A stretch of 64,000 nucleotides of DNA from Antedon mediterranea (Eukaryota; Animalia; Echinodermata). The position numbers and the translations under genes were made by a program. Shown piece by piece: positions 21,757-63,272 of the stretch (positions are counted from its first letter, which is position 1; each line of letters starts with the position of its first letter). The stretch covers positions 16,324,871-16,388,870 of the forward strand of contig NC_092676.1 of the NCBI RefSeq assembly GCF_964355755.1, given 5' to 3'. The notes beneath the pieces are model-generated. The model did not search any database, was not told the origin of the DNA, and saw only the letters and a list, made by a program, of their open reading frames with translations.

Positions 21757-21955
21757 AAAAAGGGTGTTACCCCATTTATTTTAACTACTGGACACCTCGG
21801 TGGTACCACTTGTATAATGAACAACTTCGCATCGTCACGCTATCGTCATATCGTAACGAAGTTTGGCATGCTCACTACCTACTCAAGTAACGAAATGCCA
21901 GCAGTTTGGTATACTGTAGTCTGAAAGACCCATGGAAAACATACCATGGGCACCC
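21757..21955 (-). ncRNA. Putative Pol III hairpin RNA, unit U1
   Basis: PSE-like 22001-22019, TATA-like 21973-21986, octamer-like 22163-22170, T5 at 21757-21761, apical GTTACGATAT-GACG-ATAGCGTGAC. Has an internal T4 at 21936-21939. Confidence 0.55.
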
Positions 21956-22628
21956 TAATTGATAATGATGATCTTATTTTATGTACAATAATGATAATAT
22001 TCACAGAAAAGCAGTGGCATTTTACCAAATATTTCAGTATTCTAATATATATTTGATTACGTTGATTAATTGTTTATAATATATAACAGATTATATTTTA
22101 AATAGACATCTTCATTGTAATTTACATTGTTTTTGACTAAAATTGATTTTAAACATATTTACATATTCATGAAGATTTACCGAGTCATATTTGTTTGAGT
22201 ATTATGTTATCTAAATTAAACAATGTTTATCAGAAATGTAGACATGCGTAGATAACCAAATAGTAAAGTTACACACAGAAACGTACAGTAACGTAGTTCA
22301 TAAAATACACAAAAGGATTCAATGTTTCGATATTATTTATAGGTTAATTTGAGTTGAGTTGACTACATTAGTCAACTTTCGGTTGATACCAATTTTAGGG
22401 ACTTGCCAGAAGTAAACATGTTAATCACCTCCTGACCACGAATCACAAAGCTTACCATCACAGAGGTAGGCTGGTATTTGCATCAAGTGCTTATCTTCTG
22501 CAAATTTAACTGAGCAACTATTAAAACATGTCACCGCTTTGACCACTAATCAACATAGGGCTACCATCAAATTACGATCAATTTTGTTGCATGCATTCTA
22601 TGTTAACGGGTGGATTGTCATTACAAGT

Positions 22629-22800
22629 AAAAGAGCTGAATGGGGTTCCCGTTTCATTTTGTTTTCATTCACACTACGGTATGATATCGTAACAGAAAGC
22701 GTTTATGATACTTAAACGAAGATCGTAAAATTACGATAAGTCATAACGTGTAGTGTTACCTCAAAATTTGGAACGTATTCGTAACAAACTGGTCATATCA
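22629..22800 (-). pseudogene. Degraded hairpin-RNA unit U2 (homologous to the 3' module of U8), promoter not recognisable
   Basis: CACACTACGGTATGAT..GTCATAACGTGTAGTGT stem and GGGGTTCCC end match 48974-49130. Confidence 0.45.
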
Positions 22801-23188
22801 TAGCCTTTATTTGTAAGAATACTGTACTCTTGTATTTTGTAACAAGCTAAAATGTCTTTTTATTAGGCCTATGTATGCTATAGGCCTACACAAAATTCTT
22901 TTAAGAACAGCATCAAGACGTCAGTCAAAATAAGCCGCAAAACAGAATCTTGACTTCTTTAATCCTAAAAAAAATAGCACAAATAGAATTCAAAATATTT
23001 AGTAGTTCGTTAAAAATTCCAAAATAGAAAAGCAAAATAAAATAAAGAAATCAAAAAAAATCCCAGTCTAAAGTCGGAGATGCTACCTCGTCGTGTTAGA
23101 CTGGTGTCAACATAATTGGTAACAACAAAGATATAGTTCACTATAATATATCTATGACAACAATGATGGATAACAGCATCATGCTAGG

Positions 23189-24250
23189 TAGACACCTATC
23201 GATGATTTGCAGGAATATCATAGTAAAAACGTTATTGGCTTCAAAATTAACATACCTAGCTTCTACAGTTATTCTACCGAACGAAATCCTAAAACAATTA
23301 AACACAACTTTTTTTAACTTCATATGGAATAGAGCCGAATGTGTTAAAAGAGGAGTAATTAGGTCAACATTTAACCGTGGCAGACTGAACATATTTCACC
23401 TTCCCTCCTTTTTAACATCTATTACCCTATCATGGATTAAGAAATTAGCCGACAACAAGCAATCAATGTGGAAAAATTTTGCCCTATACTTCCTAGATAA
23501 AATAGGCCTAGGCTTAAAACGCTTTATGATCATGAATTTATCAAAGCCGGAATCTTAACGCTTCGGCACATTTATAATTTTGATGATACCTTAAGTTCCT
23601 CAAAACAAATGTTAGAAAAAATCAACCACCCGAAAACACTGATTACACTTTTTCAATTCATAGTTGTATCCCAGCTGACTGGAAAAACGCCTTATCTTAG
23701 GACAAACTATTTGATCCTGTAATCCTTTTTAATAATGTCTGTATTGACAAATGTACTCCAAAAATTGTTAGAGAACATATTCTTTCAAAAATGTATTCAT
23801 TAACAAAATGTCAAAATTATTGGGAACGGTACTTTGATAATTATAATTTTAATTGGAAAAAAATAATAATGGCAACGAAAAATAGACTCTTCCAATGAAG
23901 CTCAGTTAAATGTACTGTCATGGAAAATATTACACAACGTACCCAACAAATAATTATCTGTTTAAAATAGGTAAATCAAACAGCAAGATGTGTAACAGTT
24001 GCAACAAAATCAGTGATATTAACCACATGTTTTACTTCTGCAAACAGGTATTTCCGATATGGAAAAAAGTCGATCTAATTATCCGTTCATACCTGCAGAT
24101 AGACATTACGATCTCAAACTTTCACGTAATTTTTGGTTTTGAATGTCTGAATAAAGTTCATATAAAAACTATTAATAACATTATAAATATTACTAAACTA
24201 TGTAAAAAAAAAATATGTTAATTTGATTATTAAAAATATAGACATACTGC
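23189..24250 (+). pseudogene. L1/Tx1-clade LINE ORF2 3' relic; its AT-rich 3' repeats continue at 24390-24502 and 36688-37200
   Basis: LSMICRNIIVKTLLASKLTY..FNFIWN..GRLNI; YPTNNYLFKIGKSNSKMCNSC..HMFYFC (zf-RVT); many frameshifts. Confidence 0.85.
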
Positions 24251-24502
24251 ATTTGAGAAAAAAATGAATGAATTTATACTATCTGTTGGTCATGACCGAT
24301 GTGTGTGTACCTTACCTTTTATTTTTCTGCATTATATCAAAGAATAATATTACACCCTTAACTCTAATATGAAAGCAATACCAAACCGGTCTAACTAAAG
24401 ATAAAAACACATTTTAATTTGTATTTATTTTCAAGCAAAGCAAGAATTAAAAAGAGGAAACCATTTTTGTTAATTGATATGTATTTATAAAAAACATATA
24501 AG

Positions 24503-27500
24503 TATGGCAAGCCTCAGCTGTCTGAAGTATTCAAAATATTATATTATTATATCATTTTTTTATTATATTATATATTGTATTGTAATGAATTATACGTTTT
24601 GCATTATATTACTTGGTTTTAGCATTATATTATATCTATTTCTAATATATTATGTGAAAAATGTAACAAATTATTGACTTTTTGTATTATATTATTTGGT
24701 TTTAGCATTATATTATGAACATTTAATATTATATTATTAATAAAATACATTATATTATAATATAATTGTATTATATTAAACGCATTTACTTTACTTTATA
24801 ACATACAACATTATTATATTATACGGATTCGTTAGTTATATTATTATTTTGTATGATGTTTATTATACGTCACGGCTTATTTCAGTTCTTCTAACTCTTT
24901 CTCTCCCTCCCCCTGTTCACTAGCAATCAGCGGCCGGCAGAATCTGAATTGTGTGACTGTTGAAGAATAATTACGTACTAGGCCTAGCCTAGGCCTACTA
25001 GGGGATCTAGACAAGTGACCAAGGATCACCGGACAGCTACAACTAATACTACAATACAATAATACTACTACAATAACTACTACTGCTACTACCTAGGCCT
25101 AGCTAGTGAGTAGTAGGTAGGAATATACTACCTAGGCTCTAGGGCGTATGTATGATGTTAACTACTAGGGCCTAGGCCTAGGCTAGGCCTAGAGGCCTAC
25201 TAGTACTAGGCTAGGCCTAGACTTAAGTTGTAGTAGGCTAGGGCCGGGCCTGCTGCCTTAGGCTAGGCTACTACTACTACTACTACTACTAGGCAGCCCA
25301 TGATGGGTACGAGTAAGCCAAAATTTTGGATATATGTAAACCAAAATTTGGGTACGAGCGTGTTGGCATGGCATGGGTACGGGTTGACCTGTATCCTTCT
25401 AGCTAATCGTACTATGCCTAGGCCTCAAGTAAGTCTACGCTACCCAGTCTGGCTACAATATGGTCTATTTTGTAGCTTTATTGATAGCTGGGTTCAAATC
25501 TGGGTTGGGACGGCTTTTTCTCATTTAAAACAGATTTCCTTATCATAATAAAATAATATATGAATTTATTTGTAATATTATTGTAATGTATACATAATAT
25601 AAGTAATTGCCATTGCCTTTATTACTATTAATTATGTATTATACGGTTACTCCTTAATTATACTATAGTATAATTTCCTTGTTATATTTTACAATATTTT
25701 CTTCCTAATTCTACAATTTTGTCTTTCACAGCACAAATTTATCATACTGAATCATCACACACCAAGTCTCATAAATCTCTACTGTATTTGTCCAAGCTAC
25801 TCCAGCTACATGGTATTGCCTTGAGGCTAAACTACACGGTATACTGGCACTACCATCATTCCTGGCTCGTCAACCTGTACCACATAAGCACAGTTTCAGT
25901 TTCAGTTTATTTACCATTTCAATTTCTGAACATAAGAGATGAACAACTTATATGGATGGATAACCGTAAGAGCGGAGCTCGTTTACCGGTCACCCGTTAG
26001 TGCAGTGACATTACAGAAAACATAAAGACAGGACAAAGGTGCAATACTTAACAAGACATGTGAACACTTGTGTTTGCAACCCCTTGGATAAAATAATATA
26101 TTTATATAAAGGAGAAAGTTAGATATTATAATATTTCTTTTTGATCATACAATGATAATTTTTAAATTACTTCTTAAGAAGTCATACTACTGATTCAAAA
26201 TAGTGACTTACACCCTGTGGTCAAGGCTTTCTTTGCTCTTATGCTTATTTCCTCCAACATACAGAGTACATAGGACTTTTTTTATTCATAACTGTTGAAT
26301 TGTTTCCCAATACATAGTACCTATTGGTATTATATCTAAAAATACAAAGGCGGCTAACACAGATAGTTCCATATATACAGTACTCTTTTATAAATAAATG
26401 TATCTCTCCAAACTACTCCCAACTACCTAATCTAATAATAGTACTATTAGCATACTACTATACACTTTGTAGACAAGAAATAAGTTGTATACACTAGAGG
26501 ACTTATGGTAGCACAGTCGATCGCCCTCTCACTGGCCCGGTCAACATAATCTATACCTAGATTATTACAGTAATTAAAGTACATTATTACAGAGTTTTTT
26601 TTTTTTGCAGAAATCAAAGTTATGTGTATAGAAAGCAGTACTCGTATTAAAAACTAAGCAGGTTTTTGAACGCAAACTGGCAGGATATTTTGAATATTTT
26701 TTGTTGTTGAAATGATGGAATCCTAACTTCAATTTCCACGAACCCTTTTATTTAAATTTATTTGAATAGACCTCCATGTAAACTCATTAAAGGCTACATG
26801 ATTGTTTTATATTTTAATATGTGATAGTAGAAAATCATTGTGTATAATGAGGACTATGAATCTGATATTTACTTGCATTCTCATCTTTTTAAATTATTAT
26901 TTATAATGCCGGTAATGAGTTTAAAATTTAATTATATTGACTATTTTTGATAATCATCATGTCCTTATAAATTCATTTATATTTCTTTTGTGTAATATAG
27001 TTCATATATTATGTATTAAGTAAATTGGTAAGGCCCTATACTGTTACTATTTAAGGAAAGTTTATATACACTATTATTTTATGCCTACCAATATTAGTAT
27101 TAATTGTTTATGTAAATATTTTGTCTAATTTCCTTGATTTTTTGTATAGGCCAATGGCATCAATGTTTTTCTCAAAGCAAATTAGCCTAATAATGCCACA
27201 TTTAGACACATGATTCATTGATTTCTGATATTCTGTACTTGTGTATGCATTACTAAAATAGTAGTTAATATATTTCATTTATAATGTATGTATAAACATA
27301 TATTCATATTTTTTTAAACATTTTTAAATTAAAAAAGTATTACAATACCTATCTACCTTTCTGATATTGTTACTATTATATAATATTTTTTGAGGCAGCA
27401 ATAAAAAAAAATTAGAACAATTAATTTGAGTTATACTGTACTATGTTAGTTCAGGAGATGAAGTATGTGTGGGCAGAAACTAGTGTGTTGGAGGTTGGTG

Positions 27501-31605: not shown

Positions 31606-31616
31606 TATAAGTATAG

Positions 31617-34600
31617 TTTTTTTTTTTTTTTATCTTATGTGGGTTCATCCCACTTTTATTTCCATACCACTGTTCTCTTTACATATATTTTTCACTATAC
31701 ACTATACATATCATTATATTTACAATGTTTGTTTAATCATCTGTATACATATACTTATTTAAAGAGTTTTATTCATTTGTTTACATATTATCACATTGAT
31801 TACATAGCTTCCTCTTTTTAGACATATTATCTGTAACACATTTTCATTAACAAGCTTATTTTTTTTTCTTACATAGTTGTTTTTGATTTTTTCATCTACC
31901 ACATTTTCATTTAACAATGCATATTCTCTGTTATACTCATTACTTACTTACATAATATTGTTCTCATCCTTTAACATTAATATTAATATTTTTGTTCTTT
32001 AATGTTTACAAAACCAGCAGATCCTTTTTTGCATCTATAACTTCTTAAATTTTCATTTAACTTTTTTACTTTCTTCTCTTATGTGGATTCATTCCACTTT
32101 TTTTTTTTTACTTATTTTCTTTAAAAAAAAAAAAAAAAAAACTATTTCCATATATTATTTTGTTTATACATACATTATCATTTAACCACATTGATTACAT
32201 AGTTTCATCTTTTTATACATATTATCTATAACACATTTTCATTAACAAAGCTTATTTTTTCTTACATAGTTGTTTTTGGTTTTTTTTTCATCTACATGCA
32301 TATTTATTTCATACAATTATAATACGTTTATGTTTAATAAATCCATCCCATGGGTTTGTCCCATTTTATTTTTCTTTGGATTTATCTATGCAAACATATT
32401 TTCATTTAAACAATGCATATTCTCAGTTATACTAATTACTTACTAACTTTTTACTGTTAACATTATATTTTCCTCATCCTTTAACATTGATTTTTTGGAT
32501 CTTTAAATGTTTACAAAATTTTTTTCCAACAGATTATCCTTTTTTGCATCTACAGTATAACCCATCAAAGTTTCATTTAACTTTTTTTTTTCCTATGTGG
32601 GTTCATTCAATTATTTTTTTTTTACTTATTATTTATTCTATTATTTTTTTATACATACATTATCATTTACCAACATTTGTGTTTAATGATCCATTAAAAA
32701 AAATTTGACATTTTTTTTTCTTTTTAACCATTTTATCATTTCAAAATTCCACATGCAGTAAGAATGTGCAAATTACATATATACGGTATATACCTATAAT
32801 ATGAAAGCTTTGATGAAAACACTTCACCACTTAAACCTAAACCTTCTTATCCTTCATCATTTTTTTTTTATCATCAATCTATAAAAAGCTTTTCACATTT
32901 TGTCTTTTTGTTTTCAAATCATCAAGGTATACATATTTACAAAATATACAGTATAGTAGCAAGGAAAAAAAGAAAAAAAAAAAAAATCTCATTTTCTCAT
33001 TTACATATTTTCTTCCTTAATCTGGTTGAGCATATATAGTATACCTGCAGATTTACATATTTCTTATCTTTTTTTCAGATTTAAACATTTGTAGGAGATT
33101 GATTTTTTTTTCTTTTTCCAATAAACTTAATATCTTTACTTTATAAATACAAAATGCTCCTAAAGTGTATAATTTATTTACGTAATTATTGTCAGTTTCA
33201 AATAAAAGTCTTTTGAAAGAAAAAACAGGAATATGTATGCTTACTGCTCTAATTATTTCGTTTATCTCTCTCCATAAACATTTTACTGTTATGCACTCTA
33301 CTAACATATGTTTATCATTCTCAATAACATTGCATGTGTCACAACATGGGGAATTTACAAGTCTCCACCTATGTAATCTTTCATTTGTTGGCAATATTCT
33401 GTGCAACAATTTAAAATTAAAATGTGCCAGTTTTTTTTCTTTAAGACCAGAAACTTTCTTAACCCATATTTTTGTCCATGGCATATTACCAAATATGGAT
33501 TCCCACTTAACCTGTGCCGTAGGTGTAATATATTGAGCATCTATTATGAATCTATATAATTGTCTAGACGTCATATTTAAGACCTTATTGTTTGTAATAG
33601 GTATATCATTTACATTAATGTCATGTGTTGATTTTAAAATACATTTCCATTCTTTTGGAATGGCTTTCAATATACATGAATATTCACTGATCCAATTTTG
33701 TGTACATCTTAACCTTCTTTTTATCTCTATCGCAGGCTTAAACACATTATTATTTATTACATCATATATTTTTAAAAACCCTGAACTAATCCAGTTACAG
33801 TTATATAACGGCTTCTTTTTAATACATATAAACTCATTACCCCATAATGATTGATTAATAATGTCATCATAGCTTATTGGTTTTTAGTTTGTTTTATCTT
33901 TATACTGGGTGACCTCTTCAGTCAAAGACTGATCTCCCAGAGGGCCCAGTTGGTGATCAGTGGCTGTGATGTACTAGTACACCGGGGTAACCCCCTACTC
34001 GTCTCGAAAGATGTACTAGGTTCTTTAAAGTGCACACGAGCAAGTTGTGTACACTGGACCTACGGTTTATAGTCCTTATCCGAGAAGACTCGTTCTACCA
34101 CCAGAACCATGGAGTGAGTGAGCCTCGAACCCCTGCCGATGTTATGGCTACGTGATTACGGTTCCACTGTCTTAACCGCTCGGCCACTCACTCACTGGTT
34201 CCTTATTTAATCTATTATTACAAGCATTAGCTACTGCTATAGACTTAATAACTGAGAGGTAAAATGGTGGTACGGATATATTACACGGAACTTTTGATAA
34301 ATTTGAGGTTAATGATTTTGGGCCTATCTTTTCTATATAAAATGTAGGTAAATATTTCCATTTGGCATCATCGTTTTCATACAGTCTCCTGTACCATTTA
34401 ACTTGGAAAGATATTACCTGAGATCTGAATTCTACCATTTTTAGACCACCTTGACTGTAATTGGCACACATGGTTTTTCTTTTTATTTTCTCTTTCTTAG
34501 TTTCCCAAATGAATTTAAAAATTAATTTATCCACCTCTTTTATTACTTTTTCTGGTACTAGCAAAATGCAGGAATTGTATATAATTTTTGAGAGCGCTAA

Positions 34601-36687
34601 TGTTTTTACAATAGTAATTCTTCCAAAAAAAGTGAGGTGTCTTTTCTCCCATGTTTTTAGGGTATTTTCTAATGCGTCTATTTTTTCTTTCCAGTTCTTT
34701 TGATAACAATATTCCTTATCATGTCCAACATAGATACCTAATATCCGAATTGGTGTGGATGTCCAAGAAATGTTACCATGTGTGTCCTTGCAGTCTCTTA
34801 AACTGCCAAGCCAAAAAGCATTTGTTTTATTCTTATTTAATTTTAATCCAGAAACCTCTCCAAACTTTTCAATAATACTTATGCTGTTATCTATACTATT
34901 TATATCCTTTAGAAAAAGCACAGTGTCATCTGCTAGCTGTGCAATCTTAATATCTTTAAATATACCATTGCCTGCAGGAACAATCAGGCCTTTGACCATA
35001 TCACATGCTCTTATTTTTGTAGCTAGGACTTCAGCTACTAAAATAAACAATAGAGCAGACAAGGGACATCCTTGTCTAATACCTTGGTGCATTGCAAAAC
35101 TTTCTGATTGCCAACCATTATTTGTGAATATACAATTTGTATTGTTATACAGTGCTTTTACCCAGTTCACAAATGAAATACCAAAATTGAATTTATTTAA
35201 GGCTTCTATTAAAAATGATCTATTGACACTGTCAAATGCTTTTTGGAAATCTAAACTTATAAGTATACCTTCAAGCTGTTCATTTTCCATGTAAGTAATT
35301 ATGTCCTCTATTAGTCTTATATTGTCACCACCAAAGCGACCTTTTACATACCCTTTTTGGTCATTGTTTATTATATACTTTGCAACTCGATGTAATCTTG
35401 TTGTAAGAACAAAAGAAGCTATTTTGTAGTCAATATTGAGTAAAGTGATAGGGCGCCAGTTATTTAAATCTTTGTGATCACCTTTTTTGTAAATAAGGTT
35501 GATTATTCCCCTTCTTTGTGACACAGACATTTCTTGTGTGGCAAAACCATAATTTAGTGCATCACAAACAAGGTCACAGATAAGGTACCAGAAGAGTTGA
35601 TAAAACTCAACTGTTAAACCGTCACTGCCTGGAGCTTTATTTTTTTTCATTTTCTTTATTGCTTGCTCACATTCGAAGAGAGAGAGATGACCCTCACACA
35701 TCTCTTGTTCTGCCTCTGTGAGTTTAGTTAAATTAACATGAGATAGGTACTTATCAATTGATTTGTAAGGAACATCTTGTTTTGCATATATTTTTTTGAA
35801 GAAATTAACCTCTTCCTTCAATATCTCTGTGGAATTTGATATAATGGATCCGTCCTGTTTTTTTTAATTTTTTAATATGTTTTTTATTACTATTATTTTT
35901 CTCTAAACCAAGAACGTATTTAGTGTTTCGTTCGCCATCTTCTATCCACTTTGCTCTTGACCTAATTTGAGCGCCTTTAGCTTCCAATAGGTAAATTTGC
36001 TCAAGTTCATTCTTTTTTTGATCTAATTCTGTTTCATACTGGATATTATTATCAGTATTATCCTTTTTCATAATTAAATCATTAATGATAGCAATTTCCT
36101 GTTGAAGTATTTCTTTTCTTTTGCATTTATTTTTATTTTTCATTTTCCCATATTTTATGGAGAATTCCTTTATTTTTACTTTAATCATTTCCCATTTATC
36201 CTTTGGGTTAAGTTCTTCTAATCTAGCTCTTTCTATTATGTTTTTGATGTTGTTTATATAATCTTCATTATCTAAGTGAGAATTGTTCATTTTCCATAAT
36301 CCTGGGCCTCTTTCTTCATTAGTTAAACTTATTTTTAAGGATATGGCTTGGTGATCAGACATGATTGACGGCCTGATATCACATGTGTTAACATATTCAC
36401 ATAAGTCGTTAGATATAAAAAAAATAGTCCAACCTTCTGTACGTTTGGGTGGATTTCCTTCGCCATGTGAATTGACATGTATCCGGGTTATTTTTTCTCC
36501 AGATGTCATTAAGATTCAGATTTTTCATAAAATGTGTTATTGTAAAAACAGAATTATCTACTCTATCGACACTACCTTTTTGGTCAAATTTTCTGTCTAG
36601 AGCACAATTCATGTCACCACCTATAATTATTTTATCATTTTTGCTTTCTTTGAAGTCAATAATTGTTTTATGTAAAGTCCTGAAGTA
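31617..36687 (-). mobile_element. 5'-truncated L1/Tx1-clade LINE (APE endonuclease-RT-zf ORF2, frameshifted, SINE-interrupted) with 1.4 kb 3' UTR and poly(A)
   Basis: GGDMN, RLDYFF, SDH, GPGLWKMN (APE); KAPGSDG, WRPITLLN.DYKI, LDFQKAFDSV, GIRQGCPLS, QLADD (RT, 34172-35821); CDTC..H...C (33053-33745); poly-T 31617-31632; direct repeat ATATAAGTATAGTT at 31605-31618 and 36690-36703. Confidence 0.95.
33883..34195 (-). mobile_element. tRNA-derived SINE inserted in LINE ORF2
   Basis: A box TGGCCGAGCGG, B box GGTTCGAGGC, core GGACTATAAACCGTAGGTCC (recalls Deu/Nin-type cores); near-identical copy at 63304-63631; LINE frame resumes KEP/ISYDDIINQSLWGN. Confidence 0.88.
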
Positions 36688-37453
36688 ACATATAAGTATA
36701 GTTAATGTATAAGATTATAAAAGAAAGGAAATGTATTAATGATGACATGTATAACAATTAATTAAAGATAAAAACGCATCTTATTTGTATTTATGATGTT
36801 ATTTATTATGTTAATTGATAACGCAAGTATAAAGAAAGGTATATAAGATTATAAAAGAAAGAAAATGCATTAACGTTAACATGTATACAAATTAATTAAA
36901 GATAAAAACGTAGGTTAAGTTGTATTTATTTTCAAGCAAAAGTAAGAATTAAAAAGATAAAAATTGTTAAAAAGAGAAAAAAAGTTTGTTAATTGATAAT
37001 GTATGTATCAAGAATATAAGTATAATTAATATATAAGATTATAAAAGAAATGAAATGCATTGATGATGACGTGTATAAAAAATAGAAAATAACTATGGTT
37101 AATAATGATAATAGGTATAGAAATAAATACAAAAATCATTAGTAATTCAAACAGATGATAACAAAATTTCAATTGCATACATATATATTACTGTTTTGAT
37201 ATGATGTTTGTTTGAAATAAAAGTGGGATGATGAAAAATCATGCTAAATTTCTGTCGAGAAACGCATGGCACGGAATATAGTCAGGCCATCCACAGCATG
37301 AATTGTTTAAGTTGTTTTTGTACATATGTTTTTTGTGTAATAACCTATCGTATTTTGTACTTTAATTGTAATATAACGCTCTAAATTAATTTGAATATAC
37401 CAAGAACCTGAAACATACCATTACACCATTGTGTAGGCAGAATCAGGTAAGTT

Positions 37454-37600
37454 AAAAAAAAGAAGGTTTCCTCGTCTTTAAGCAGTTACTTCGTTACCCA
37501 ATGCTCTTCTCCAAACGCTATGTAAATGACGTTAGGAAGAACAGCACAACAATACCCGTAGGAACGAAGTACTGTGAGATACTAACAAACCACTAATGAC
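37454..37600 (-). ncRNA. Hairpin-RNA unit U3 (family B), transcribed part only, separated from any promoter
   Basis: Near-identical to 42280-42425 and 47073-47220; T8 terminator at 37454-37461. Confidence 0.5.
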
Positions 37601-38279
37601 AGAGTCTTGATGACCATCTTTTGTTTTTTTTTTAATATTTCTTGAAATATAGTCATCACTTGATTTCTAAATTCTTTATTTCACCCTAAACAATATCATG
37701 CGCTTTTAGATTGAAGAGCAGAGAGCAATACAATTTACAGTAAAAAACAATGATTAATTGGTAAATATCTTGAAATAAGGTCAAAATCATTCAAGCGTCG
37801 CTGGAGTTAGCTCCGTGGCGTTAGTTAAGATAGGGTATATAGCTGTCGTTAATAAGCGCCACGGACGTAATGATTTGCGTTAATAACGCCATAAACCATT
37901 TGGAATTGTGTTTGTGTGTGTTGACTTTTATTCATTTTTAAACTTTTTTTTATTATTTCAATGGCTTTGATATTTTTTTGTTTGAGATGTGTTTCCTATG
38001 TTAGTTTTTGCCTTTTTATAGTGTTTTTCTTTAAAATTCAGACATAGCCTATAAAGACATAGCCTATTATGTGCGGCCCTTCAATAATAAGCAGACGTGG
38101 TTTCGAAGGAGATACGTAAAAGTACGCGAAAAAATTAATTGCATTAAAATATAGATACTGATTGACCAGTCCCTGGTGGCCACTCACTAATTAATATTCA
38201 ACATTTAAAAAAATAGCCAAACCACGCGAAATTAAAAATTAGGACATTCTTTATTGTTATCCGTTAATAATATATTTCT

Positions 38280-39826
38280 TCATAATCTGTTATTTTGTCT
38301 CCGTAGTCGTTGAAATACATGATGAGTCTGATAACTAAATTATCTTTGTGTGATCTTCCTAAGACACCCCTAGTCTGTGACATCTTTCCAGCTACCACTC
38401 GTCCACTTTTCAAAGTCAACATCTAACAGATGTCTTTCATTTTTTTTTGCCGGTTTTCCCACATCCTTAACTTATATTAATTTTGTGTTTTTTTAGTTTA
38501 TTTTGTATTTACTGTTTGTTTGAGGGTCCCTAATGATCAGCTGATGCTGGATGGACCACCCTCATAAAATATTGTTGAAATAAATAAATAAAATAAAATA
38601 TTGGATGTCTCGTTCTCGCCTCATTGACAGTCTATGAAGGCGTCTTTTGTTCTGCCTTTCTTCCTCTTCTAGTTTGTACTATTAAAAAAAAGAAGCTTAA
38701 ATTAGAGGCTTTTTATAAATAAAATAAGTCCACTGCCATGTTGACAATCACCATCTCCACTCCACCAACCAACCCTTGCTTATAATATTATATTATTTTA
38801 CCTGGTGGAATTTATTAGCATGTTTAATTCCTTGCATTAGCGAATTATTACGATGACGAGGATGGTTATTTTGAATATTGGTGAAGATTGATAGTAACTC
38901 TCTGTCAACACCAGGACCAAACGATAATTTCAGCTCATTCATGAGTCCGTATCTTGTCGGTGGTCCGTATCGACGTCGTTGGACAGATAACTGACTGTCT
39001 ACTGACATTTCCGATGCAATTCTGAAAAAAGAAGGAATATTTATCATCAACAATGATAGTTGAAGATGATTTGTGATTTGATCATTGACAAAAATTAATA
39101 CTTTATGGCGATGATAATAATGATGATGATGATGATTATTATTATAATGATGAGATAAATTAATTGTGATTATTACGGGTGATAATTACTTTTTAATCTG
39201 ACTGGTTAGAATATGTGCCTCGGCAGTCCAATCATGGTCACCTTTTGAAAAATAAAGTATGAATATATTAACAACTTTGATTCATTTTGGAAATATCTAT
39301 AAATAAATGACAACAATAAACAATATCTTAAATAAACGGTTCCTCTTACCTTCTTGGACCATCTTTACGTCGTCGTCCTCTACGTCCGACCCTAAACTGT
39401 TCCTGTCGTCAGAGTTATCCTCTGGAATAATGAGCTCATCGTCATTTGAATGGATCTTCAGCAATGAGCTGATCGTCATTGTCAGCAATCAGTTCAGCAA
39501 TGGGCTGATCATCGTTGTCAGCAATCAGTTCAGCAATGGTTCTCATCGACTTCTTCAGTGATCGTCGAAGGGTGGCCGAACGGGATTTAGACTTCCTTTT
39601 CTTGTCTTCCCCATCCTTAGTACCCGACAGCTTATCTGTGTCAATTGTCAACGCAGTTACTTAATCATCATCTGCTGTCGTGTTCTTAGATTCAGAACTT
39701 GGCCACTACCGCCGGGACATTTGGAGGATCAACACTACTTCCGTCTTGCAAATTAAATTCTTCGGGATTATCAGCAACGAATTTCTCAACTGAGTTGCGT
39801 TGACATAAGTTCAAAAGATTACCCAT
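38280..39826 (-). pseudogene. Spliced orphan gene relic (acidic/basic low-complexity protein, MG start)
   Basis: Exon-like blocks 39350-39826, 38802-39021, 38678 to about 38600 with GT-AG borders; FHQ|YKLEEEERQNKRR joins in frame; frameshifts and a stop in exon 1; CpG-rich upstream region 39895-40030. Confidence 0.45.
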
Positions 39827-40423
39827 ATGATTTGTAATTAATATAGATACAATACGAGATATGAAATCAATACAAATTTCAGAAAAGGTTTCGTTGATAT
39901 GGCGAATGCGTTCTTTATCGTAGTAACATCGACGCGCGTACAAGGCATCCATGCAAACAAAGCGCAACCGCTATGTGTGACGACGCCGCCCGCTACGTGT
40001 GACGCAAGATGGGGAAGGAAGGGGGTGGATGTCTTAACTATCGATTACAATATACTGTTATATTATATCCATACAAACAAAATAATTAATTTCATTTGAA
40101 ACAATTTTCATTCAACAAAAAGTATTACTATGAAAATAATTAAATTGATTATTAAATCATTATAATAATGTGTACTTTCAAATAATACAGAAAAAAAGTT
40201 ATTACACAATTTAAAAAACATAAAACAAAAATAATTATTCTGTACTAAAACCGTGATATTTTTGTTCATCTACCATTAATTTGGATTTACATTCAAAATA
40301 ACACACAGTACAATACAGTGCACTACTGTATAAAGAAACTATTGAATTCAAATTTTATTTATCAATTTGATTTGACAAAAGTATGCAAAACCTTTTCACA
40401 CATATTTAATATAAATTAGCAAA

Positions 40424-40880
40424 CTATTTCTACACAACTAAAATTTGTGAAAGCAGTGACAATAATTATAACACAATATAAGTTTATGTTATATTATTTG
40501 ATAATTTGAGTTAATTTTAATATATTTTATAATAATATTAATTATTAATAATAATATGTCTCTCTTGTTATTTAGATGATATTATTTCGATTAACATATA
40601 TTTTTAAACAAATCATACATATTCATGAGCTTTTACTGGGTCACATGTATTGATAATACAATCCAACATTGAACAATTTGATCTAAAAATAACATGAGAA
40701 ATTGTCAATACGGTATTAGAATACTGAAGTCAATAGACCCGACGAATCATTTATATATTTTAACTGCATGATACTACAAGCCGTTACGGTGACTCTGAAG
40801 AATAGATGAAATACATATGCTATCCTGATCATATTCAATATTTCAACAGTAAACATTAATGTCAATTGTGTAACAGGATC
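40424..40880 (-). promoter_or_regulatory. Orphaned type 3 Pol III-like promoter block (U4)
   Basis: PSE-like TGTCACTGCTTT at about 40450-40461 and octamer-like ATGAATAT at about 40619-40626; TATA mutated; paralogous to 42464-42850. Confidence 0.5.
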
Positions 40881-40892
40881 CTATCTTATTAA

Positions 40893-41973: not shown

Positions 41974-42279
41974 TATATGTAACTAATCATATCACGTATC
42001 GCGTGTTAAATGTTTTTATTCGATACAACAAGCTAATTATTCCTATGTTTACATTGGAGTAATACTTTGAAAACTTCAAAAGGCCTTTGCCATATTTTTC
42101 CTGTCTTGGTTGTCTTTGGCCTATACCATCCCTGCATCATTTTGGCAGCTGCAAACAGAATCCCCGTTGAAAAATAAAAGGAAGGAAGGTTTCCTTTGAA
42201 CTTTATAATTTGATACCAAAATTCTGACAACATATAATGCCATTCAACTATGTGTGTAGACATACATAATCCTGTATTG

Positions 42280-42442
42280 AAAAAAAGGTAAATTCTTCGT
42301 CTTTTAGCAGTTACTTCGTTACCCAATGCTCTTCTCCAAACGCTATGTAGATAACGTTAGGAAGAACAGCACAATATCCGTAAGGAACGAAGTACTGTGC
42401 AACATTAACGAAGAAACCACCAACGAAAGAAGGCTACTGCCC
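42280..42442 (-). ncRNA. Putative Pol III hairpin RNA, unit U5 (family B, ~163 nt)
   Basis: PSE-like 42491-42509, TTTAAATAAG 42464-42473, ATGAATAT 42671-42678, predicted +1 GGG at 42442, T7 terminator, no internal T4. Confidence 0.7.
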
Positions 42443-43799
42443 AATTTACGCGACATTGATCCTCTTATTTAAACACAATGAATAATAAAGTTACAACAAA
42501 GCAGTGACAATAATTATTAATTATCAAACAATACATTTATTTTACATTATTTTATTAATTAAGTAGGTGTTTATACATTTTACTATATTATTTTGTATCA
42601 AAACATGTCTCTGGCAATTTAGATGATATGATTTCAATGATTAACACTTACATGTTTAAACAAATTATACATATTCATGATCTAATAAGGATCAAACCAT
42701 TGTGATCTAAAAATAACATCAGAAATTTCCAATACGGATAAGAATACTCTAGCCAATGATATGATACGCATGCGTGACAAAAAGAGTCGAATTGTTAATA
42801 CACATTCATTTCCATTATTTTAACCGTGTAACAGGATCCTATTTTGTATGAATCTATAGGCCTATATATATAAATTTCATAAGGCATCGGAGTATATTGT
42901 GGGGAATAGTATATACAATTACATCGAGACAACTGATAATAAGACCTTTCGTTTGAAATCGAGTGAAACCCTGATAGCCGAGTTGCTGAGTAAGATGGCA
43001 AGACTGTATAACTGTGCGCTATTTGTGTCCCGTTAGGACCCTGATAGATGTCTGCCCATGTTGCAAGTTGTCTAAAAAAACGTCTTCCTTCTTAAGCCGA
43101 AACGGCCCACTGTGTCGCGGTTGGTATTATATTTGAATAAACGCCCGAAACACCTCCCCAATAACACATCACTGAAAATAATAATCGCCCATCCACATTT
43201 ATACGCACAATATTGTATTATATTTAGTTATAATTATACTATTTGTAGTAGAATTCATCGGACTGTTATCTAAAATTTACCAAGCATTTGTTATTCTTTT
43301 TTACCACTTTTCATATTATCTACTAGTGGATTTTTTTTAATTATAAATGTTAGCATATTATTAAAAGTAAAACATCAAAGTATCCCTCGAATACGCACCT
43401 CCCTCAAATTAACTCCGCCTCCCCACCCCCACCCTATAAGTGCCCCACCAAACAATAACAACTATACTTTAAAATGTTAATATCAAAAGACACTGTGAAA
43501 CAGGTTATATAGGTTTAATTAGTTTTACGAATATCAAGCATTTCAATCATGCAACCGGCCGAAAACGTCCAGACCAAAACGCCATTCTAAAACGCCATTC
43601 TAAAAATTTTTAGCCGAGTCATTATCATTCCGAGAACCATCGTCTACATGCGCATGTTAAATTTGGATATTCGATACAAAACATTGATTATGGTTACATT
43701 GGTGTAATAATTTTAAAAGGCCTAAGTTTGCCTTATTTGTCCTGTCTCTGCATCCTTTTTGGCAGGACAAAGATTTTGCTGCGAACAGAATCCCCGTTT

Positions 43800-43953
43800 A
43801 AAAAAAGGAAGTTTTCCTTGTTTGTTTTTTTTTTTGTCTCCTGACACATCGTTATGACGACGTACCTTAAAGAACACTGGTTTCGTTACGCTATCGTCAT
43901 ATCGTAACGAAACAACCTTTATTTAAGGTACGTTTCATAACGATGTGTCAGGC
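43800..43953 (-). ncRNA. Putative Pol III hairpin RNA, unit U6 (family A, ~154 nt)
   Basis: PSE-like 44002-44020, TATATAAATA within 43974-43987, ATGAATAT 44165-44172; near-perfect hairpin 43850-43952, A-rich linker, AGGAAAACTTCCT mini-hairpin, T7. Confidence 0.72.
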
Positions 43954-45597
43954 ACTAAAGTGATACTCGGTGATTTTATTTATATACAAGAAATATTAAA
44001 TTCACCGCAAAACAGTGACAGTATTTTCAAAATCTCTTGTTGGCCAGTTACTTTCAATGTTTTGATTAAGCATTATATTTTGTAATTAGCTATCATATTT
44101 TTTTTAAATTATATAATACTTTAAATATTGTTTCGATTGAAATTAACTTTTATGCAAATCATACATATTCATGCCTTTTTGCCGGGTCACTGGTAATTTA
44201 AAGATCACACTTTAACATAAACAATGTGAGCGAAAAATAAAAAATAATACTAGGGAAATTTCAATACAGGCTCTCATACGCATGCTTAAATAACTACGTC
44301 ATCATGATTTAGAGACTATTATAAATACTCCAAGTATTATTATTATTATTTTGACATAATGTTACTTCCGTGCGTACTAATGGTCTTTTCTGTCTGTATA
44401 CTATCGACACGATAACTCTTAATTTAGTAATGGTATTATTTGTAATCAAAGTAAAACTTCTGATTTACGATAAATGTTAGGCTTATGATATCAATTTGAA
44501 TGATTTTTAAAAATGGTAACAAGATAACACACCTCGTAATAAAAACATAGAAAAGGCCAAATCAAATAACAACATGCAGCGCGTAAAAAAGAAACAAATG
44601 GATCAAGAGTGACCAAGACAATTAATGAGAAATTACGTAGGCCTATACCGTCATGGAAGTAGTATTTTATTAAGTTAGATCAAGACAAAACCTTGCGCTG
44701 TACTAACTGCATTATGGTATGTATGTATGTTTCCAACGTGTTTGATCTGGGGTATTTAGATGTTTCACAACATTATATAAAACCAGGATATTTTGCCTTG
44801 CATTGCAATGTGCTGAACGATACCAATCTAAACACATAATCCATTATGCATGTGATCGCCTCCCGAATCTTGGCTTCTTTAATCCTAAAAAATAGCACAA
44901 ATAGAATTCAAAGTATTACAGATAGTAAACTTTAACATCAATAGTGTCACGTGTCTTGATTTTGTTCATACTTATTGCGATATTGCTATGAGCAAGGCTA
45001 CAACCAACAATAACAAACGAAGAATACAAAGAGTTAGACACGAATCTGTAGAATATTTGATTACGAATAAAATATCTCTTACAACAGTAAAGCCATCCGC
45101 AATAGCATCTTAGTAATTAACGCCATTATAGAGAAACTAGAAATAAGTAGAGAGTTATTTTTTCTGGAGAACTAATATTGAATATAGGTGAAAGAAATTA
45201 AGATACAGTTAACATAAGTTAAGACTTAACAATAATAATAATAATAACAAAATATACGTTAAGACAAAATAAGGAACTTAAAATAAGTTTAAATATACTG
45301 AATATCGTTTGCTAAATTAATTGAGAAACAATATAACAGATTTTAGATGAATCAAAATGTAGAAATCAGAATTGTTGGTGAAAAATTGTAAAATAAAAAA
45401 AAAATTGGAATAGTTATGATAATGTAAAATTAATCTTCACTTTGTTAGGTTTTGGTTTGTAAGAAATACGAAATAAAATAATTAAAAATAGATTATAATA
45501 TCATTGTAATGTTAAAAATAAGTAATTTATAAAAAAAAACGTTTCGTAAAGTTATTAAGCTTTAATATTAGGCCTAAGTAAGATTTTTTTTTTATAA

Positions 45598-45645
<48 letters not shown>

Positions 45646-45987
45646 TCTGAAGTCGGAGATGCTACCTCATCGTAGTAGACTGGAGTCAACATCATTGGTG
45701 AAACGGTACCAGTGATGGCTAACAGCATCACGCTAGATTGATTTGAAACAAGTCTGTATCTTGCATGTTGTACTTGTGTATGTAGCTTACCAATTTCCTT
45801 TACTTATTCTTGTTTTTTTCATTTATTTATTTTTTCATTATTTATTTATTTATTTTTTGACTAGGCTACTCTTGAAATGTTTTATTTTTATATACTTTTT
45901 GATTGTTTTTTTCTGGTGGAACTAGCCTCAAAGCCTCCCTGCTTATTTAAGTTTCTCCAGAATATTAAAGTGCATTCTACTTTCTTA

Positions 45988-46894
45988 GGGTCTGTTTCTG
46001 CTGAAAAAATCAAAATAATCGATTTTTTCCAGTCACCGCAAACCACAAAAATAATCGCGTTGCAATTGAAAATTGCTACGACTTTAATCGGTTATTCAGG
46101 TAATCGGTTTTTAAAATCACGTCATCATTCCCCCACAGCGCAGTTCAAGTTATGAAAGGCCGATGAGAGTTGGTTTGTTTACATCCTATCGCTGCCTAAA
46201 ACTCTCACATGTAGGATTAAAAATTACTCTTACGTAAAGCTTTATTATTTCTAAAATAAACATCTAGGCCTACTACCGTACCACATACAACAGAATAATG
46301 ATGTTATATTAATAAGGACACGTCGGCGAAAAAAGTTCGTTTCGCCGTTCGTTGGTTCTACCTTCGGCCTGCTAGGCCTAGAGGCTATTATATTTCTACC
46401 GAAACAAGTCAACAGACAACAGGCCTACTAACAAATGACATGTAAAACATCGTTAGCCTGGACTGGTGGTATGTAACGGGTGTACTTGTAACACAGAATC
46501 CTGGAGTCTCTCGGTATAATTCTCCCCCACAAAATAATAAAAATCAAATGTTTAACATTTGATTTTTATTCGGTCTACATCGCGATCGTGGTTTTGCTGA
46601 TCGTCGTCGATATCGCGCAAATAAACAGCATGCTTTGTGACGTGAATAAGTTTGTCATACTCTAGAGGTCAAAGTGAGGTCAATAATCGCTATTTGTGTT
46701 GCAGCTCAAAACTGCTCCGCAATAATCGGTTAAAACAAGAAATAATCGATTAAAACACGCAATGGATTGAGTGTTTTTAATCGGTTATTTTTAATCGGTT
46801 ATTTTATTTTGCGCCGTTTCTGCTGCCCAAAAATAATCGATTAAAAAAATAAACGGTTAATAATCGATTATTTCTGCTCAGCAGAAACAGGCCC
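45988..46894. mobile_element. PIF/Harbinger (Tourist-like) non-autonomous element
   Basis: TIR GGGTCTGTTTCTGCTGA / TCAGCAGAAACAGGCCC; TTA TSD; subterminal TAATCG(A/G)TT repeats. Confidence 0.85.
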
Positions 46895-47072
46895 TTAAAA
46901 CTCTCATTTTTGTTATTCCATAATGATGTATCTTATGAAAATAAATAAATATTTTGTAATTGAAACTTGTAAGCATATTTTGTAATATAACGCTTTAGGC
47001 CTAAATTAAGTTGGAGATCAAAAAACATACCATTAAATTCAACATAATTACAGAATAAGAGATTTAAAAATG

Positions 47073-47238
47073 AAAAAGGAGGAGGTTTCCTCACCTTTTA
47101 GCAGTTACTTCGTTACCCAATGCTCTTCTCCAAACGCTATGTAAATAACGTTAGGAAGAACAGCACAATACTCGCAACGAACGAAGTACTGTACACATTG
47201 TAGCGAAGAAACCACCGATGAGATATTACTATTAAACC
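47073..47238 (-). ncRNA. Putative Pol III hairpin RNA, unit U7 (family B, ~165 nt)
   Basis: PSE-like 47283-47301, GTTAAATAAG 47256-47265, ATGAATAT 47446-47453, T5 terminator; closing stem GGTTTCTTCGCT/GGTGAGGAAACC pairs fully only on the minus strand (three G-U). Confidence 0.7.
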
Positions 47239-47639
47239 TGACAAACACTGATGATCTTATTTAACCGCAATAAATATTAATTTCACAAAAAAGCGGTGAC
47301 AATAATTATCAAACAATAGGCTTATGTTAATTATAATCGCAGATTATATAATAATACACATTTTAATATATTGTATATTTCTTTTATGTCTTTCTGGTCA
47401 TTTAAATAATTATTTCGAATAACGTTCATTTTTGAATAATCATACATATTCATGAAATTTAATCGGATCACGTGTAACTAATGATGACATCATCTAACAT
47501 TGAAAGGAATGAATGAACAATGCGATCTAAAAATAATATCAGGAAATTTTAATACTGAATTGATCAAGAATAAGTAAATAGACCACTATGAGCTCTCATG
47601 ATACGCATGCGTAGATAAGCAAGCCTTACTTCACCCGAT

Positions 47640-48460
47640 TATTATTAGTCATAGTCATAGTCATATAGTCATATATACTTTATTGTCCATTTAAAAAACA
47701 GAAATGTGATTTGAAAACTGGCAAAATACAAAAATATAAAATACAATTTACAAAAACACGCACAAAAAGTTAAGAGGCTAAAAATTGTTAAAATTATATA
47801 AAAATTATTATTATTTAATTATATTATATGATTTATTATTATATTGAACTAACGATGATTTAAAGTTTATATAAAAGCATTAAAACTATAAAAATAAACA
47901 AAAGCGGTTACATTTTACCTTTGTACTCTGGAGTTATATAAGTGTATAGCATTAGGTACAAACGAGCACCTAAACCGTTTTGTTTTGGTATTAAGTGCAC
48001 GTAGTCTTATGCCAGAATTCATGGGAGCAAATTGTTTGTGAAGAGGATGTGTTTCATCATCAATGATACTTTTTACTTTTTTTAACACATTTTCTTTATA
48101 CAAGGATTCAACATCAGGTAAGTGCTCTCCTACTAGTCTAATTGCTCTATTTCCTATTCGATTAAGTTTAATTTTATCTTTTTGCATTGTATTACCATAA
48201 AAACAAACATTACAAAAAAGTATTACACTGAGAATTACAGAGTTATAAAACAATTTAAGTATAGTTTTGTCAATTTGTAGGTACTTCATTTTTCTTAAAA
48301 TAAACATCCTTTGGTTGGCTTTGCATGTGGCTTTATTTACATTATTTATCCAATTTAGCTTATTGTCAATTATACAACCCAGATATTTGTACTCATTTAC
48401 TACTTCAATCTCATTTTCATTTATAATCAGAGGTTCTAAGGGTTCTTTAATTTTCCTAAA
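47640..48460 (-). pseudogene. L2/Rex-group LINE 3' relic (DUF1891-like C-terminus) with 3' UTR and (GACTAT)n tail
   Basis: YKYLG.IID..L.W, ILKLFYNSVILSVILF, DETHPLH, RFRCSFVPNAIHLYN. Confidence 0.8.
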
Positions 48461-48973
48461 ATTATTAATTAAATTATTAAATTATTATTATTTGTATATT
48501 ATTACGTTACTTATAATGTTATACTTTCGTACGTATGATCTTTTCGGTCTTTAGATTTATTCATAGAGGTTTAATGGTGTATTTGTCAATACAAGTTGAA
48601 CTAAATTTGAATTTACGATATATGTAACATATCAATCTGAAAGGATTATTTTAAAACGTTGCAACAAGAACATACCACCTGAAAATCAAAACAGAGGAAA
48701 GCCCAAATCACATAATAACCAGGGAAGAGATTCCCTGTAATAAAACAAAATAAATCAACAAAAAATATAAGAAATGCTACTTGACAGTAGGGCCTACTTA
48801 ATAGCTTGACCATTTATGGCCCATGGTTTAGTTTTACACCTAACTCTTCCAAATTAATCAAAGTTGTTCTTTACCGACTTCTAGGACATTTAAAAGAGAA
48901 CGTTTCATTTCTGTTTGGAATTCGATTATATCATATTGTATGTACTGTATATTTTTGTATCATCACTACAAGT

Positions 48974-49230
48974 AAAAAAAGGGTTTCCCTTTTAAATGTT
49001 CACACTACTGGTATGATCGTAACGGCAAGCGTTCTCTGGTCTCTTAACCACCTGATCGCATTGCGAATATTGATATTGAAACGAAAGAACCCATTTCGAG
49101 TCATACAAGACGTGTCACCTGACAATTCGGAACGGACTGTCATTAACGGAAGACGAGCATCGTTACGGTATCATCATATCGTAACGAAGAGGCCTTACGT
49201 TAGAGCATGAGGCGGAACCGACAGTCAGGC
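48974..49230 (-). ncRNA. Putative Pol III two-hairpin RNA, unit U8 (family A plus second module, ~257 nt)
   Basis: PSE-like 49279-49297, TACATAAATA within 49251-49264, ATGAATAT 49450-49457; same predicted 5' end GCCTGAC as U6; AGGGAAACCCT mini-hairpin then T7. Confidence 0.7.
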
Positions 49231-49859
49231 AACCTGAATAACTCTAATAATTTTATTTATGTACATTAAATCTAAAAGTCACAAGTAAACAGTGTCATTA
49301 GCTAGTTATAAGTTATAACGTTGCAGTTATAAGCAAATTATCCTCGCTTATTTTGATTTTACAACTTATCAATTTCAATAGATACCGGGGGTTATACCTG
49401 GTCATTTAAAATAATGTCAATTGAAATTGATTCTTTTAACAGACCATAAATATTCATGTCGTTTGGATGACGCTATCTAACATTAAATACTACTGTAGGA
49501 AGTCAACTACTCACGCTATCAGGCATACACATGCGTCATTGTAGACAACTAAAACAAACACCCGATTCTGTAGCTGTCAGTACACTCAGTATGGAAGACA
49601 AACAAAAAAGATAATGTGTTTAGGCTAGACATCACTATGGATTAATGTAAAGAACCTTTCGTTGTTTTGAATATATTTTCTATTTTGACGTTGGTACCTC
49701 AAAAACTTATTTCACTCTTTTTGTTTGTTATATCAAAGGCCGTGTTGTTAATTTACATTTTTATTGTATAAGAATTTAGCTTGATTTTATTTCATAAAAC
49801 TGTTTTAATTTCTGCAACATTTTCAATTATCTGTACAGTACAATTTGAAAAATGTATAT

Positions 49860-51780: not shown

Positions 51781-51968
51781 ATTGGAAATATTCTTTTTTT
51801 CAAACCAATAATTAGTAAACTAACCTTGACAGTTTCGCTGTCCTGATCGGACAGCTTCTTCAGACAGCGAAACTGTCAAGGTTAGTTTACTAATTATTGG
51901 TTTGAAAAAAAGAATATTTCCAATATACTTTATACCTACAAACCAGATGAACATTTTCAATCATGTTA
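51781..51968 (-). mobile_element. Penelope-type fold-back insertion with a minimal hammerhead ribozyme core (51826-51864)
   Basis: Minus strand CTGAAGA-A-GCTGTCC-GATCA-GGACAGC-GAAAC-T-GTC; about 60-bp inverted arms; 11-bp TSD AATACATCCAT at 51770-51780 and 51969-51979. Confidence 0.75.

Positions 51969-56076: not shown

Positions 56077-63272
<7,196 letters not shown>

Follow-up and report, generated by a model that had tools for sequence, protein, structure and literature searches.

The interval between an integrin-alpha gene and GART in the crinoid Antedon mediterranea contains a series of paralogous units with U6-like promoters, and the question raised by this locus is whether these units are genes of RNA polymerase III (Pol III) and, if so, what kind of RNA they would produce. 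The window analysed here is a stretch of 64,000 nucleotides of contig NC_092676.1, numbered from its first letter. The cluster spans 21.7-49.6 kb of it and consists of five intact units (designated U1 to U5) and three decayed ones, arranged head to tail, with all intact units on the minus strand. An earlier interpretation made from the letters alone (the sequence-only reading) had placed five minus-strand units in this region, and all five were found at those places and on that strand. Judging from the sequence features described below, we consider it very probable that the family consists of transcribed type-3 Pol III genes; the promoter class is a known one and the RNA is uncatalogued.

A common promoter architecture

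A 19-bp box resembling a proximal sequence element (PSE) was matched five times, always on the minus strand (22001, 42491, 44002, 47283 and 49279; shuffle mean 0.03), and allowing one mismatch yielded no further match in the window. The distal box of the earlier interpretation was likewise recovered: a 12-bp box, CATGAATATKTA, which contains the octamer-like sequence ATGAATAT and is referred to below as the OCT-like box, gave six matches, all on the minus strand, corresponding to the five units and an orphan promoter (0.07 expected). As both patterns were derived from the units themselves, the independent evidence lies in the common order, strand and spacing of the boxes. A TATA-like box, previously proposed at about -30, begins exactly 38 bp after the first PSE base in all five units, without insertion or deletion. 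The distance from the OCT-like box to the PSE amounts to 152, 170, 153, 153 and 161 bp in the five units, and the OCT-like box stands at about -215 to -232 in each of them. The outer ACGCATG motif that had been claimed is also present in every unit, as AAGCATG in one of the five, ~78-158 bp further out than the OCT-like box, and the predicted oligo-T end was found in all five as a run of T5-T7. A promoter profile run over the window detected no further promoter.

Mean pairwise identity among the five units was highest in the OCT-like box (0.97), followed by the PSE (0.77), the TATA-like box (0.76) and the PSE-TATA spacer (0.66); four other flanking stretches gave 0.33-0.41. The spacers between the OCT-like box and the PSE aligned at 0.54-0.63, compared with 0.54 after shuffling, which bears out the earlier description of conserved motifs within diverged spacers. 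Pyrimidine-purine steps occur 62-64 bp and 67-68 bp from the PSE, each in all five units; the transcription start is not fixed and is uncertain by ~5 nt. The 19-bp box that had been placed 63-67 bp upstream of a G start holds for all five units; for the start itself, two registers had been mixed.

Layout, spacing and terminators fit the description of human U6 genes and thereby support the assignment to type-3 Pol III promoters. In human U6 the PSE lies at -65 to -48 and the distal sequence element (DSE) at -250 to -170 (PMC9652321), the TATA box is located ~30 bp upstream, and a nucleosome lying between DSE and PSE helps Oct-1 and SNAPc to bind (PMC5855946). Insect Pol III promoters of small nuclear RNA (snRNA) genes show an almost fixed PSE-TATA spacing and a sequence that drifts between species (PMC1761439). 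In metagenome contigs, a U6 motif behind the PSE-like box was matched 62 times, and none of these matches was U6. The sea urchin U6 gene reportedly possesses a TATA-like box and a PSE, and sea urchin PSEs are said to share little sequence, going by the titles of cited studies.

Two minor observations concern promoter-like elements. Most promoters have a weakly common AT-rich element ~40-90 bp upstream of the OCT-like box, which might correspond to the Staf/ZNF143 site of distal elements in vertebrates. On the plus strand, a lone PSE 5' core without a 3' half was noted at 22529-22539, probably by chance.

Folding and classes of the predicted RNAs

The long fold-back RNA that had been attributed to each unit was confirmed in so far as all five intact bodies fold better than their dinucleotide shuffles (z = -4.6 for U1, -6.3 for U2, -12.3 for U3, -4.8 for U4 and -4.3 for U5), but a single fold-back does not describe them all, because U2 and U4, as well as the decayed body B2, can form a three-way junction and U5 comprises two rods in tandem. 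The corresponding z values of the decayed bodies were -0.8 (B1) and -2.9. Folding was more stable on the minus strand in four of the five intact bodies.

Two classes can be distinguished. Class A, a rod of ~115-125 nt, includes U1, U3, both halves of U5 and the decayed body B1. U3 aligned to U1, to each U5 half and to B1 above the best of 200 shuffles, although narrowly so with B1 (65 vs 60); the U5 halves scored 85 and 75 against U3 (shuffle maxima 39.5 and 52), and B1 scored 80 against the 3' half of U5 (shuffle maximum 60), while neither U1 with B1 nor one U5 half with the other exceeded the best of 200 shuffles. Three class-A rods are of equal length with the apex in register, and 8 of their 33 consensus pairs are changed on both sides. 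Class B contains U2, U4 and B2, whose cores are 82-87% identical (U2/U4 87%; B2 82-83% to both), and the downstream flanks of U2 and U4 are at shuffle level (0.50 vs 0.48). Alternative folds were computed for class B at -56.5 and -57.2 kcal/mol in U2 and at -56.1 and -51.8 kcal/mol in U4. Between the classes, body identity is 0.45-0.52, and locally aligned bodies score inside the range of the shuffles or hardly above it.

The longest unbroken helix measures 8-10 bp in four of the five RNAs and 18 bp in U3, and owing to the short helices of these four an intact ribonucleoprotein (RNP) fits better than a Dicer substrate. None of the five intact bodies has an internal T5 and four lack an internal T4; random stretches of the same lengths were free of T4 in 9-23% and of T5 in 38-56% of cases, a control which ignores the higher GC content of the bodies.

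Two hairpin modules shared by the units

Across both classes, six copies of an apical hairpin of 30 nt could be aligned without gaps; 17 columns are invariant, and the tetraloop varies. Pairing was observed in 93.9% of its 66 cells, as opposed to 29-48% in slid-partner controls, and 2 of its 11 pairs showed two-sided (compensatory) changes. The 3' side of the apex opens with nearly the same seven bases in all six copies. At up to one mismatch the 18-base core was found only at those six places in the window, where a covariance model of the hairpin likewise detected no seventh copy, its best other match (17.3 bits) falling in a tandem repeat at 20886.

The second module is located at the 3' end, after an A-rich linker and just before the T-run, and consists of four pairs closed by an AA(A/C/U) (AAH) triloop. 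Of 28 cells in seven copies, 26 are paired, and each of the four pairs exhibits two-sided changes. On both strands, seven of 557 runs of T5 or longer carry such a hairpin, and five of these seven are family members.

Metagenome contigs contained no stretch with the class-A apical pattern, and no match to the two-class apical pattern was present in viral contigs. The latter pattern had two prokaryote matches (L063 501-529 and L064 501-529), which represent one palindrome in related Deltaproteobacteria and were rejected as a chance operator match; as judged by eye, the palindrome lies directly upstream of a likely antitoxin/PIN-domain gene pair.

Comparison with known RNA families

The Rfam scan produced no match at gathering score; according to the sequence-only reading, a match would have removed the novelty of the family. 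Scans at E up to 10 returned only sub-threshold matches to snoRNA, miRNA and bacterial sRNA models, U2 being covered by the 13-kb scan only. Furthermore, patterns for U6, RNase P/MRP, signal recognition particle (SRP) RNA, Y RNA, the telomerase template and A/B boxes were scanned in seven bodies. The ACAGAG box of U6/U6atac was absent from all seven, as were the RNase P/MRP and SRP core motifs, for which no Rfam model matched either; the GTCCGA motif of Y RNA, the A- and B-box patterns that mark vault and SINE-type (type-2) Pol III RNAs and telomere-repeat template permutations did not occur in any of the seven, and no tRNA was found. UUAUC, a loop motif of Y RNAs, was limited to U2 and B1. 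GATC is absent from U1-U4, present twice in the 3' half of U5 and, among the seven bodies, confined to U5 and B1, and end-to-end pairing of the Y type is not common to the units. These scans agree with the earlier statement that the units lack U6, RNase P/MRP and Y motifs and a 7SK GAUC pair. In the literature searched (titles and beginnings of abstracts, with few subscription papers), no such family was described in crinoids or echinoderms.

Type-3 Pol III genes comprise U6, 7SK, RPPH1, RMRP and Y RNA (PMC12193147). The units share with them a distal box, a PSE-like box near -63, a TATA-like box near -30, a DSE-PSE gap of about one nucleosome, an oligo-T end and the lack of any internal A/B box match, but their bodies match none of these families, and their PSE consensus and octamer-like box are variants. 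7SK is characterized by GAUC repeats pairing in the 5' hairpin (PMC10083321) and by an SL4 with a five-base loop containing an invariant G and a two-pyrimidine bulge (PMC5175362). The units resemble 7SK in their type-3 promoter, folded 5' domain, single-stranded linker and short 3' hairpin right before the oligo-U, and also in the alternative folds of class B; they differ in having no GAUC-GAUC helix and a triloop in place of the SL4 loop and bulge, and in being multicopy, divergent and shorter than the 332-nt human RNA. Protein partners of 7SK are HEXIM, LARP7, MePCE and P-TEFb. Y/sbRNA genes are clustered Pol III genes for RNAs of ~100 nt (100 +/- 20) whose paired ends form conserved lower and upper stems (PMC4726728). 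They too are clustered paralogues, each with its own Pol III promoter, with divergent bodies and few conserved structural motifs, whereas the units described here are 150-260 nt long, have a separate 3' hairpin and no conserved terminal stem, and show UUAUC in only one of five intact bodies. The snaR RNAs of great apes are lineage-restricted, fast-evolving, structured Pol III RNAs that arose by local duplication and bind a double-stranded-RNA protein, through which they were found (PMC3337139); the units are similarly locally duplicated and structured, with an A-rich/oligo-U tail that is clearest in U3, but show neither the intragenic promoter nor the Alu-monomer or any other short interspersed element (SINE) origin. 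A precedent for a type-3 promoter on an unexpected RNA in one animal lineage is the hymenopteran telomerase RNA, while echinoderm telomerase RNA is of the H/ACA type (PMC9841428); unlike the former, no unit body contains a telomere template motif.

Read depth and allele differences at U4

Five runs from two studies, none of them recorded as RNA, cover the stretch; four were mapped on 45,700-48,400, a region that includes U4 only, and all behave as DNA. Run X1 had been guessed to be RNA, an assumption that was discarded because it covers flanks and repeats like the DNA runs. In run X5 the depth was 281-622 over the promoter and 5' part of U4 and 2,441 over its 3' part, compared with 14,715-199,389 over the flanking repeats. 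Although read depth is no copy number, a difference of this kind speaks against a high-copy element, while leaving room for a few further close copies. Derivation of the units from a high-copy transposon, named earlier as an alternative, is therefore disfavoured for U4, the only unit mapped, with a depth one to three orders of magnitude below that of the flanking repeats. Among 40 of 63 allele differences, the U4 PSE accounted for two, which coincide with its C/T-degenerate positions, and the U4 RNA for another two, of which one affects a loop and the other follows the 3' hairpin. In the X1 contig, at least seven substitutions were counted in 167 bases downstream versus at least two in the 167-base U4 body, which is a weak hint of constraint.

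A proposed mode of action and its alternatives

By analogy with U6 transcription, one nucleosome would bridge SNAPc, bound at the PSE, and a POU factor, bound at the distal box, Brf2-TFIIIB would occupy the TATA-like box, transcription would terminate at the T-run and La would bind the oligo-U end of the RNA. The 150-260-nt RNA, for which a rod or a three-way structure is predicted, would act uncut. From the pattern of conservation, the recognised part would be the apical stem and not the tetraloop or the long arms, and the putative partner would thus most likely be a stem-reading RNA-binding protein. Service as a protein-binding decoy or scaffold appears the most likely mode, because the apical stem is kept, the loop and long arms drift and the helices are mostly short. 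Provided that the units are transcribed type-3 Pol III genes, we think it fairly probable that their RNAs would function as intact RNPs. The complete model, in which an uncatalogued type-3 Pol III RNA family acts uncut as a protein-binding decoy or scaffold presenting the 30-nt hairpin, is given an even chance. Somewhat more tentatively, the family might constitute a new class of animal Pol III regulatory RNA, crinoid or perhaps echinoderm-wide, that serves an undescribed RNP; in the same tentative sense, such a class might combine a protein-binding hairpin of 30 nt, used as a module, with a 3' cap bearing the AAH triloop, and might come in single, doubled and switchable forms.

Several observations weigh against this model or against the Pol III assignment on which it is based. 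The shuffle counts of the two promoter boxes overstate their significance, because the patterns were read off the units, and the TATA-like box has the non-canonical form TAAA(A)TAA. Of 852 sliding 150-nt windows, three without a promoter fold more strongly than U3, and U5 is outside the top 25; as promoterless hairpins fold as strongly or more so, folding alone is unspecific. The internal T4 of U1 at ~+18 might stop Pol III early, and gene conversion could explain the near identity of the class-B cores, an identity shared by the promoterless B2. The number of two-sided pairs in the apical hairpin does not beat shuffles (442 of 500), and both of its compensatory changes may be single events between the two classes. 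The criterion by which T-runs were scored for the 3' hairpin was set after the units had been seen, with the loops taken as the best-pairing site in each 3' end. Moreover, pair probabilities of this hairpin are 0.56-1.0 in U3 and U5, 0.07-0.14 in U1 and U4, where it competes with end-to-end pairing, and 0 in U2, where it is degenerate. All covariation was drawn from six to seven paralogues of one window.

Four other explanations were weighed. Natural short-hairpin genes, that is, Pol III hairpins cut by Drosha and/or Dicer into micro- or endo-siRNAs, would account for the near-perfect rod of U3 with its 18-bp unbroken helix and its generic sub-threshold matches to pre-miRNA models on both strands (best 33.2 bits vs 84), for the two-rod dumbbell of U5, for arms that diverge while pairing is kept and for the seven nearly constant bases after the apex. 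We nevertheless regard such genes as unlikely, since the apex, and not a 22-nt segment of an arm, is where conservation is highest, helices do not exceed 10 bp in four of the five RNAs, no match longer than 13 nt to anything else exists within the window and a 30-45-nt 3' tail with its own hairpin is not known as a Dicer-type end. A little less likely still is a very divergent, amplified crinoid 7SK, Y/sbRNA or vault RNA beyond the reach of the Rfam models. Promoter class and clustering are those of Y/sbRNA genes (PMC4726728), the order of closed 5' domain, linker, 3' hairpin and oligo-U recalls 7SK, as do two alternative folds of class-B RNAs lying within 0.7 kcal/mol in U2, and detection of vault and Y RNAs is described as difficult when close homologues are lacking (PMC8704543). 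However, a paired GAUC is missing from the 5' hairpin and GATC from four of the five RNAs, the triloop is A-rich and unlike the SL4 loop and bulge (PMC5175362), the RNAs are longer than Y RNAs, with UUAUC in one of five, and neither an A/B box match nor any such Rfam family at E up to 10 was obtained.

It is improbable that the units are selfish or neutral sequences, either a promoter and fold-back of mobile-element origin or functionless duplicates homogenised by gene conversion. Broken pieces make up three of the eight, repeats and fragments of long interspersed elements (LINEs) abound in the region, and B2 keeps most of the class-B core without a promoter, as might be expected in that case; yet the depth of U4 in run X5 is far below that of the flanking repeats, downstream flanks are unrelated between units, and island-like boxes together with two-sided pair changes at 45-52% body identity would be unexpected from neutral decay. 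We assign the lowest probability of all, a very small one, to boxes and palindromes that act as DNA, in an enhancer cluster or as Pol II snRNA-type promoters, with no Pol III RNA being made. The location between the 5' ends of two divergent genes, the capacity of palindromes to be protein-binding DNA sites and the non-canonical TATA-like box could be reconciled with such a role, in contrast to the single strand of all units, the fixed PSE-TATA register, the terminal T5-T7, the up to 11 G-U pairs per fold and the variable distance of the apical hairpin from the start.

Few animal RNAs are listed as products of U6-type promoters, and most of those are essential and long known. If the favoured assignment to type-3 Pol III genes is true, a family with its own covarying motifs, expanded and pruned in one cluster, would add to this small set in a lineage of echinoderms that branched early and for which the papers that could be searched offer poor documentation even of 7SK, Y and vault RNAs. 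In addition, the units provide a candidate crinoid consensus of PSE, TATA-like and distal boxes, usable for listing the type-3 genes of the genome, and this candidate consensus could serve in U6-type promoters for the expression of guide or hairpin RNAs in crinoids. The predictions are cheap to test, as they specify defined sizes, strand and ends and two short structural motifs.

Decayed copies and history of the cluster

The coordinates of all units and their parts are compiled in the table. Three broken units had been reported in addition to the intact ones and are present, but in dissociated form: 40424-40880 corresponds to a promoter without a body, and 37454-37600 and 22629-22760 correspond to bodies without a promoter. 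The orphan promoter was detected by nhmmer with E 3.5e-16, and its spacer is closest to those of U2 (0.70) and U4 (0.69). B2 lies ~2.8 kb downstream of it, and the two are possibly one gene split by an insertion of ~2.8 kb, although no terminal (inverted) repeats of the supposed insertion were found between them. The intervening 37620-40440 contains short open reading frames (ORFs), two of which have no Pfam match, and a 36-bp tandem repeat. Like the clusters of Y/sbRNA and snaR genes, the family probably expanded through local duplication, with copies being born and lost.

Table. Features of the intact and decayed units in the 64,000-nucleotide window; RNAs and promoters are predicted.
Feature	Position	Strand	Description
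U1 predicted RNA	21757..21956	-	~200 nt: 5' hairpin, class-A rod, 3' triloop hairpin, T5; internal T4 ~+18
U1 apical hairpin	21832-21861	-	within class-A rod
U1 promoter	21957..22249	-	TATA-like ~21974-21981, PSE-like 22001-22019, OCT-like 22160-22171, ACGCATG 22243-22249
B1 decayed class-A body	22629..22760	-	without promoter; internal T4 runs; LINE fragment upstream
B2 class-B body	37454..37600	-	without adjacent promoter; one apical pair broken, deletion in first stem
Orphan promoter	40424..40800	-	OCT-like 40616-40627, PSE 5' core ends 40461; without PSE 3' half, TATA, body
U2 predicted RNA	42280..42447	-	163-168 nt, class B, apical hairpin 42335-42364, degenerate 3' hairpin, T7
U2 promoter	42448..42775	-	TATA-like 42465-42471, PSE-like 42491-42509, OCT-like 42668-42679, ACGCATG 42769-42775
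U3 predicted RNA	43800..43956	-	154-157 nt: near-perfect class-A rod, A-rich linker, 3' triloop hairpin, T7
U3 apical hairpin	43883-43912	-	within class-A rod
U3 promoter	43957..44287	-	TATA-like 43976-43982, PSE-like 44002-44020, OCT-like 44162-44173, AAGCATG variant ~44281-44287
U4 predicted RNA	47073..47239	-	~167 nt, class-B three-way fold, apical hairpin 47129-47158, 3' triloop hairpin, T5
U4 promoter	47240..47612	-	TATA-like 47257-47263, PSE-like 47283-47301, OCT-like 47443-47454, ACGCATG 47606-47612
U5 predicted RNA	48974..49235	-	257-262 nt: two tandem class-A rods, 3' triloop hairpin, T7
U5 apical hairpin	49160-49189	-	first rod; diverged in second rod
U5 promoter	49236..49536	-	TATA-like 49253-49259, PSE-like 49279-49297, OCT-like 49447-49458, ACGCATG 49530-49536

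Genomic setting

Within the window, a GART exon of 96 residues matches GART of Antedon mediterranea with 100% identity over 96% of its length, with that of Anneissia japonica next (83%), and another ORF matches an integrin-alpha protein of Antedon mediterranea. When both proteins were mapped on the window, the integrin exons were positioned at 3,097-15,194 on the minus strand and the GART coding sequence from 56,101 on the plus strand, and these exons place the cluster in the intergenic DNA of two divergent genes, barring a distant untranslated exon. At 15750-15830 on the minus strand there is a likely signal-peptide and first-repeat exon of integrin-alpha without a counterpart in the database protein (P0121), which appears to be truncated at its N-terminus. 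An intronic location of the cluster was considered and found to be unsupported, with the likely first coding exon of integrin at ~15.8 kb and GART coding starting at 56,101; distant exons in the 5' untranslated region are possible.

The region has ~31% GC and many repeats and LINE fragments. A LINE-type element at 33053-36714 on the minus strand has a 563-residue ORF for a reverse transcriptase (Pfam RVT_1, E 6e-35) and is split over several frames, and a near-identical tandem duplication of ~1 kb is situated upstream of GART at 53561-55460. The strongest fold of the window (-99.9 kcal/mol) belongs to a near-perfect inverted repeat with arms of ~60 bp at 51781-51926, which has no promoter of the family and is possibly a miniature transposon. 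Finally, three plus-strand copies of a repeat (21177-21280, 23063-23180 and 45642-45735) display, as judged by eye, the pairings of a ribozyme like that of hepatitis delta virus (HDV). One copy gave a sub-threshold match to the Rfam model HDV-F-prausnitzii (25.9 bits vs 44, E 0.24), and the copy at 23063 directly precedes a LINE fragment; the repeat is probably the 5'-end ribozyme of a retrotransposon.

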